Virus record (IMG/VR): IMGVR_UViG_2974597873_000001
Coordinates: 48,524-112,523 of that record
Length of the DNA stretch: 64,000 bases
Origin: a virus
Taxonomy: Duplodnaviria > Caudoviricetes
Reading direction: 5' to 3' (one strand)
The notes under the pieces were generated by a model, which was given only the letters and a program-made list of their open reading frames with translations, searched no databases and was not told the DNA's origin. The translations under genes were made by a program, and so were the position numbers. Below, piece by piece: positions 52,561 through 52,700 of this stretch. Numbering within the stretch: position 1 is the stretch's first letter; every line of letters starts with the position of its first letter.

Positions 52561-52700
52561 GTGGGTAGCCGGACTCAATTTATTACCGGCAAGGAGACTC
52601 TGCGAATCCATTATCTCCAACCATGACCTGAGGCGCTACCTCGGATTGCGAAATCAGCCATGTGTATTACCCCCGCAGAGGGGTTATTCTGCCATACCCA
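52561..52700 (-). ncRNA. ~140-nt tRNA-like RNA with insertions in every arm
   Basis: TGGGTA/TACCCA stacked on GCCGG/CCGGC; TGGCAGAA D-arm start; branched anticodon arm. Confidence 0.65.

Follow-up and report, generated by a model that had tools for sequence, protein, structure and literature searches.

What is the RNA that fills the space between two tRNA-Lys genes of a phage, and does it belong with the tRNAs that surround it? The window, by which we mean the whole stretch of 64,000 nt analysed here, forms the right-hand end of a 112,523-bp virus record that carries direct terminal repeats. A sequence-only reading had placed a giant cloverleaf of about 140 nt at 52561-52700, with a branched arm in place of the anticodon arm, and proposed that it was derived from a tRNA and represented a new class of non-coding RNA. 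The named phages nearest to the window are the Streptomyces phages LuckySocke, Alone3, pSt2308 and GiJojo, with a DNA identity of about 75-77% over parts of the region, and the 112.5-kb genome is Streptomyces-phage-like.

The minus strand of the window carries about thirty tRNA genes. Promoter-like sites are present upstream of the array, and no minus-strand terminator was found between these sites and the tRNA genes. The first proteins encoded downstream of the array are an unknown protein, the product of a gene with peptidase-annotated relatives, and a TerD-domain protein. The tRNA-Lys(CUU) gene that precedes the RNA does not encode CCA, its discriminator being followed by CAA. The features of the locus, in the order of the RNA from its 5' side, are the following.

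53228-54799: Ro60 gene with TROVE and vWA domains, about 500 nt upstream of the RNA
53241-53213 and 53083-53056: promoter-like sites upstream of the array
52726..52798, minus strand: tRNA-Lys(CUU), directly upstream of the RNA, found by ARAGORN and the Rfam tRNA model
52558..52725, minus strand: the whole predicted RNA, 168 nt, filling the whole inter-tRNA spacer
52701..52721, minus strand: 5' hairpin P0, 7-8 bp, loop CUGAUCA containing the palindrome UGAUCA
52695..52700, minus strand: 5' strand of the closing stem, UGGGUA (helix 2), pairing with 52562-52567
52664..52694, minus strand: arm a (the earlier 'D-arm'), helices 3 and 4
52674..52679, minus strand: arm-a loop UCUGCG, covarying with the complementary arm-c segment below
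52622..52662, minus strand: arm b (the 'anticodon-position' stem CAUGGC/GUCAUG), helices 5, 6 and 7
52593..52618, minus strand: arm c (the 'variable arm' GGAGA/UCUCC), 16-nt loop, helix 8 with two compensatory pairs
52599..52604, minus strand: arm-c loop segment CGCAGA, partner of the arm-a loop
52568..52590, minus strand: arm d (at the 'T-arm' position, GCCGG/CCGGC), 13-nt loop, helix 9
52562..52567, minus strand: 3' strand of the closing stem, UACCCA, followed by the tail CUUU (52561-52558)
52485..52557, minus strand: tRNA-Lys(UUU), directly downstream of the RNA, found by ARAGORN and the Rfam tRNA model

Further matches to RNA models were recorded on the minus strand of the window. An 81-nt match to the tmRNA model at 48617-48697 scores 64.5 bits, above the gathering score of 47, and spans model positions 1-374, which is essentially the tRNA-like domain alone. 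ARAGORN makes a dubious 626-nt tmRNA call in the same region (48088-48713), and matches to the tRNA-like domain of tmRNA are found in relatives too (L001 692-772, L002 458-538, L006, L007 and L008). At 47756-47839 a match to the tRNA-Sec model is sub-threshold (38.6 bits, cut-off 47) and coincides with no ARAGORN call; it may represent a tRNA with a long arm and irregular structure, or else a tRNA-like RNA.

Fold and conservation of the spacer RNA

The predicted RNA begins directly after the discriminator of tRNA-Lys(CUU) and ends on the base that precedes tRNA-Lys(UUU); its overall fold is a 5' hairpin followed by a five-way junction made of the closing stem and four arms. These bounds are close to those of two covariance model matches, one to the Rfam family manA (52558-52721) and one to R1, a model of the element's own clade (52557-52724, 184 bits). 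The extent first proposed falls within the element; it is too narrow, missing the 5' hairpin (52721-52701) and the tails. Every stem listed in that reading is present on the minus strand: UGGGUA/UACCCA (52700-52695 with 52567-52562), GCCGG/CCGGC around a 13-nt loop, a CCCC/GGGG hairpin after UGGCAGAAUAA, CAUGGC/GUCAUG forking into GAUU/AAUC and GAGG/CCUC, and GGAGA/UCUCC. Arm a consists, in order, of a UG linker, a 3-bp outer stem, GAAUAA, the inserted hairpin CCCC(U)/(G)GGGG, and UAA. The two hairpins into which arm b forks are GAUU-UCGC-AAUC and GAGG-UAGCG-CCUC, and arm d abuts the closing stem without a spacer.

Folded as a single sequence, the element is only weakly better than its shuffles, with z-scores of -1.6 (141 nt) and -2.0 (167 nt), and the plus strand gives -1.05; the argument therefore depends on comparing homologues. 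A Ro60 protein query against metagenomes, with nhmmer applied afterwards, gave three full-length homologues and one partial (L025, L024, L056 and L031). In the resulting four-sequence alignment of the short forms (A3), whose homologues have 46-53% GC and come from independent metagenomes, RNAalifold independently recovers the stems first read in the window together with the 5' hairpin. The consensus holds 46 pairs; in 15 of them both partners have changed, and none of the nine helices lacks a compensatory pair. Pairing is retained in 97.3% of cells, against 35-45% when the partners are slid by 1-3 columns, and none of 500 shuffles reached the observed covariation. The strand is fixed as minus because conserved G-U pairs are present.

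The changes are spread over the whole structure. P0, which is helix 1 in A3, has compensatory changes in four of its eight pairs, and its loop UGAUCA is invariant in all four short-form homologues. In the closing stem G-C is replaced by A-U in relatives, the outer stem of arm a is GCA/UAC in the window and GCG/CGC in relatives, and helices 5, 6 and 7 of arm b each have compensatory pairs. GAAUAA and UAA of arm a are conserved. Judged by this comparison of sequences, the element is a genuine conserved structured non-coding RNA.

The earlier argument that paired insertions are not what pseudogene decay would leave is thus borne out by the compensatory pairs in nine of nine helices, and the homologue alignment it had called for did yield compensatory changes (15/46 pairs). 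That the element is the remains of a decayed tRNA gene, or a fold that arose by chance in the spacer, would be consistent with the modest single-sequence z-scores (-1.6 to -2.0). Against it stand the compensatory changes in every helix among independent metagenomes of 46-53% GC, the conservation of the element across tRNA contexts and a match to the manA model over its full length; this explanation is refuted by the compensatory changes in short and long forms, and we give it hardly any credence.

The long forms belong to a second size class. Ten distinct copies of the RNA were found in related phages, some of about 167-168 nt (short) and some of about 245 nt (long), and in the long forms 21 of 59 pairs are compensatory. 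The long form, as seen in L001 5579-5824 (minus strand) and L018 3994-4232 (plus strand), has two hairpins with the same UUAGCG hexaloop and stems that covary; at the place of these hairpins the short form has UAGC and UAGCG/A loops. BLAST with the window element gave no match in the phage collection, and with the long forms it gave only 4-6 records. The RNA stretches are unannotated in the GenBank records searched, which were those of LuckySocke, Alone3, pSt2308, Wakanda and GiJojo.

Relation to the manA family

The manA motif was described in 2010 as riboswitch-like, with an ornate junction and conserved unpaired bases (Weinberg et al., 2010, PMC2864571). In a permissive Rfam scan the element aligns to manA (RF01745) over model positions 1-192, which is the full length, with a score of 49.7 bits that falls below the gathering cut-off of 55.2 bits. 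The E-value varies with the search space: 8e-12 for 501 nt, 2.6e-10 for 16 kb and 4e-13 for the element's own genome. In the alignment to RF01745 the parts first named as those of a cloverleaf map one to one onto the manA consensus: P0 corresponds to the first hairpin of the model, arm a matches the consensus letters UG.C.GAAUAA ... UAA, and GGUAA...UCC at arm d is matched likewise. The arms follow the order of the consensus, the structure line of RF01745 and RNAalifold of A3 giving the same helices, and the junction letters UG.C.GAAUAA, UAA, GGU and GGUAA...UCC are all present in the element and invariant in A3.

The search also works in the other direction. R1 was built only from the four soil short forms, and with filters off it finds the manA RNAs of the cyanophages S-SSM7 (31.8 bits, E 1e-9) and P-SSM2 (11.7 bits, E 0.005), accepted members to which Rfam's own model gives 123.6 and 181.6 bits, respectively. 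The long forms are matched weakly by R1 (25.8 bits, E 3e-6). Against the manA model the syntenic long form of LuckySocke/Alone3 scores 47.8 bits and that of Wakanda 39.1 bits in one Rfam scan, with no match in another, and the Rfam scans of GiJojo and pSt2308 list no manA match for their copies. With a full-length alignment to manA at 49.7 bits and a clade model that retrieves canonical manA in return, the proposal of a new class has to be given up. As far as sequence and predicted structure can tell, the element belongs to the known manA family, as a divergent member from soil phages.

It departs from the family as curated in three respects: its score lies below the curated threshold, its arm b forks into two hairpins in the short form (more in the long forms) against three in the manA consensus, and it lacks the 5'-UTR context. 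The likenesses extend to the whole layout, with a 5' hairpin bearing a GAUC or GACG loop, a closing stem and four arms, and both are phage-borne, with model matches in both directions and some canonical copies lying flush against tRNAs. Canonical manA RNAs come from marine cyanophages or Photobacterium, whereas the element comes from soil Streptomyces-type phages, and its clade includes the second form of about 245 nt with the two UUAGCG hairpins.

The two also differ in genomic context. Rfam types manA as Cis-reg (potential 5' UTR), whereas the element is bracketed by tRNA genes, as is always the case in its clade. The canonical manA of P-SSM2 is found between regA and purL, and that of S-SSM7 ends exactly where tRNA-Gly begins. 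Among 79 distinct IMG/VR loci carrying the canonical 16-mer, a tRNA lies beside manA in eight, and 71 have no tRNA nearby; tRNA adjacency as a general manA rule was rejected on this count. Some rows of the Weinberg manA alignment visibly include flanking tRNAs, and six T-arm 11-mers have at least 14 occurrences in the alignment file.

Two observations concern the neighbourhood of manA in other phages. An annotated hypothetical CDS of 43 aa, SSSM7_180 (L075 2142-2273, equal to NC_015287 151441-151572), falls within the manA RNA of S-SSM7 (151363-151563) and reaches into the start of tRNA-Gly; this gene call is probably spurious. In cyanophage S-CREM1 an abiF RNA is reported to lie beside manA (PMC9964418), and the tRNA array of one relative of the window (L008 3192-3229, plus strand) has an abiF match near threshold (32.6 bits, cut-off 37).

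Resemblance to tRNAs and the neighbouring Ro60 gene

Can a member of the manA family still be a tRNA derivative? The element could be seen as a mimic derived from a class II tRNA which has lost its anticodon and gained paired insertions, and which would work through tRNA-binding enzymes, whether by decoying them, by signalling processing or as a substrate of RNase P. It resides in tRNA arrays, and like the class II tRNAs (Leu, Ser and Tyr; RF00005) it has a closing stem and four arms including a long extra arm at the position of the variable arm. The linkers, too, have tRNA-like lengths: UG (2 nt) separates the closing stem from the 3-bp stem of arm a, one A (1 nt) precedes arm b, and the last arm, of 5 bp, adjoins the closing stem directly (0 nt). 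By inspection, with no statistic attached, the linkers UG and A and the absence of a spacer are the same in all four short forms of A3. The 5' half of arm a matches a tRNA-Leu D-arm; in relatives UGGCGGAAU followed by CGC coincides letter for letter with the D-arm of the tRNA-Leu that the phage itself encodes, and the second-best match of R1 is the tRNA-Ser of T4 (12.5 bits, E 0.003).

The resemblance in linkers and arm a is short and judged by eye, and the models do not bear it out. The tRNA model (RF00005) has no match within 52558-52724 at E up to 10, ARAGORN calls no tRNA at the element, and R1 with filters off has no match to the tRNAs of its own array. The element also differs from a tRNA at each diagnostic part. 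It has a forked arm instead of an anticodon loop, a hairpin instead of the GG of the D-loop, and a last loop of 11-13 nt without the UUCRA of a T-loop; its closing stem has 6 bp instead of 7 and leads into a CUUU tail with no NCCA, and a 5' hairpin takes the place of the free 5' end. Of the cloverleaf, then, the closing stem, the four arms and the class II-like linkers stand, and detection by the tRNA model or by ARAGORN does not follow. Descent from a tRNA finds no support in three negative searches (the tRNA model, ARAGORN, and R1 against the array), and ancestry by models was rejected, the T4 tRNA-Ser score of 12.5 bits being too weak. We regard a tRNA-derived mimic as unlikely, and tRNA ancestry, for which the resemblance in linker spacing rests on inspection, as a minority reading.

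Another reading is suggested by the Ro60 gene at 53228-54799. The element might be a partner RNA of the phage Ro60 protein, as a Y-RNA-like cofactor or a substrate, and it shares with the YrlA Y RNAs that they are phage-encoded, lie near Ro60 and tRNA genes and are partly tRNA-like. The copies found through Ro, short and long, lie within about 1.5 kb of the Ro gene. This association is biased, since Ro was the query by which the homologues were gathered. In Wakanda, P-SSM2 and S-SSM7 the RNA occurs with no Ro match, no copy of the RNA was seen in the Ro-bearing complete relatives G003 and G005, and the YrlA model (RF02553) gives no hit on the element at an E-value limit of 10. A requirement for Ro60 was rejected on these grounds, since RNA without Ro and Ro without RNA both occur. 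The YrlA-like matches that are found sit on the other side of Ro, and we consider a partnership between element and Ro60 very improbable.

The YrlA-like matches of the window (54920-54978 and 55272-55333, minus strand) are weak, with scores of about 32-33 bits where the gathering score is 69, and lie between tRNA-Asn and Ro60. Full-length weak matches are found at the same place in relatives (L001 8235-8349, L002 7932-8047, L006, L007, L008 and L012).

A probable free-standing RNA in the tRNA array and its possible assembly

The genes around the copies bear on what kind of RNA this is. A tRNA-tRNA spacer is filled exactly by each of the ten distinct copies, and the tRNAs on its sides differ: Lys/Lys in the window, L001, L002, L012, L019 and L020, Leu/Leu in L024, L025 and L056, and Gln/Trp in Wakanda. 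The Lys-Lys spacer holds the form of about 245 nt in LuckySocke/Alone3, pSt2308, GiJojo and two metagenome contigs, and in Wakanda a form of that length fills the Gln-Trp spacer. An exact fit between tRNAs whose identity changes argues for a free-standing RNA and against a 5'-UTR switch.

Other relatives have the flanking genes and no RNA between them. In L006 5790-5938 and L008 5983-6171 only 3 nt or 41 nt lie between the two tRNA-Lys genes, and in L005 5529-5919 they are separated by a 391-nt spacer, also without the RNA; in L007 the inter-Lys spacer of 144 nt folds no better than chance (z +0.37). The RNA gene is thus present in some lineages, absent in others, and elsewhere in the array, between Leu tRNAs, in still others. 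No match to the RNA came from the two complete related phages that also carry Ro (G003 and G005), so the RNA is either dispensable or was missed there.

The established label of manA would make the element a cis-regulatory RNA, a riboswitch candidate in an mRNA leader that senses a ligand and controls the genes downstream of the array. Both Rfam and the 2010 description place manA there, and this accords with the P-SSM2 copy between regA and purL, the 71 of 79 canonical loci without a nearby tRNA, and the ornate junction with its conserved unpaired bases (PMC2864571). In the present phages tRNA genes lie on both sides, and the downstream neighbour varies between copies (Lys-UUU, Leu-UAG or Trp). 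No terminator or ribosome-binding-site hairpin follows the element, and the first proteins downstream have no shared theme; RNA-only assemblies of manA, moreover, form without a ligand (10.64898/2026.07.01.735769). A downstream neighbour that changes, with no expression platform, argues against a riboswitch, and we hold regulation in cis to be improbable for the element.

What seems rather probable instead is that a gene inside the tRNA array of the phage encodes a free-standing structured RNA, a compact soil-actinophage version of manA about 168 nt long. Transcription would start at a promoter immediately downstream of Ro60 and cover tRNA-Ala and both tRNA-Lys genes along with this RNA. Its 5' end would then be produced by 3' cleavage of the upstream tRNA, and its 3' end by RNase P acting on the downstream tRNA-Lys(UUU).

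A parallel for such a gene is known from T4, in which species 1 and 2 (rnaC and rnaD) are stable RNAs of 139 and 119 nt that are not tRNAs, adjoin tRNA genes on the same strand and are co-processed with tRNAs. No function is known for them. Neither matches RF01745, and R1 gives only E-values above 4, so they were rejected as homologues and are analogous in context only. Unlike the element, rnaC has a true T-arm (GGUUCGAAUCC). It also contains GAGUAGCG twice.

What might a free-standing manA RNA do? The loops of arms a and c offer a clue. UCUGCG and CGCAGA are perfectly complementary over 6 bp, and their equivalents in L024 and L056 are CUUACG and CGUAAG, with three positions changed on both sides and the pairing kept. 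Against shuffled loops this complementarity has a p of 0.001-0.02 per sequence. In the long forms an equivalent pairing is seen by inspection, GCAG/CUGC in some and GUAG/CUAC in others. Complementarity of arm a to downstream sequence was absent from the 69 marine manA RNAs tested; the arm-a/arm-c contact is therefore specific to the clade, and the pairing was rejected as a feature of the whole family. Palindromic loops were not significant against shuffles (p 0.07-0.9), which leaves them as a suggestion only and led to their rejection as evidence of symmetric kissing.

Recent structural work gives these loops a possible meaning. A cryo-EM preprint reports that manA RNAs shorter than 200 nt assemble into octamers, decamers and an icosahedral cage of 60 subunits, made of RNA only and held by kissing loops that vary among members of the family (10.64898/2026.07.01.735769). 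The oligomers were formed in vitro from other manA sequences, the assemblies contained no ligand, and the preprint is silent on tRNAs and on biology (10.64898/2026.07.01.735769). By analogy with these RNAs, the leading mechanism for the element is that it may join its own copies by loop-loop pairing into a closed RNA-only particle, a proposal we hold tentatively, at somewhat below an even chance. The candidate contacts would be the covarying loops of arms a and c and the palindromic UGAUCA loop of P0. The arm-a/arm-c pairing could also be an internal pseudoknot instead of a contact between copies.

Other phage RNAs invite the same comparison. GOLLD and ROOL are phage-associated and often lie near tRNA genes. 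Like manA, they are described as ornate RNAs that form RNA-only homo-oligomers (PMC12286853). They are several times larger than the element, and an Rfam scan of the element region gave no match to either family.

Since 2010 manA has been an orphan 'riboswitch candidate', and the only clue to its function is the in-vitro cages reported in 2026. What is new here is a soil-actinophage clade of the family in two size classes, with strict tRNA bracketing, a covarying loop contact and cultured Streptomyces carriers. The range of manA is thereby widened to soil actinophages, and its placement in the tRNA arrays of these phages argues against the cis-regulatory label. Several of the carriers are cultured phages of Streptomyces hosts, for example S. 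lividans, so that expression, processing, deletion and assembly are directly testable. One may go further and suppose that the whole manA class is an expanded class II tRNA, excised by tRNA-processing enzymes and then built into RNA-only cages in infected cells; we think this a long shot. If it were true, phage tRNA arrays would be production lines for self-assembling RNA particles, and LuckySocke, Alone3, GiJojo and Wakanda would provide the first genetic system in which to study what such cages do.
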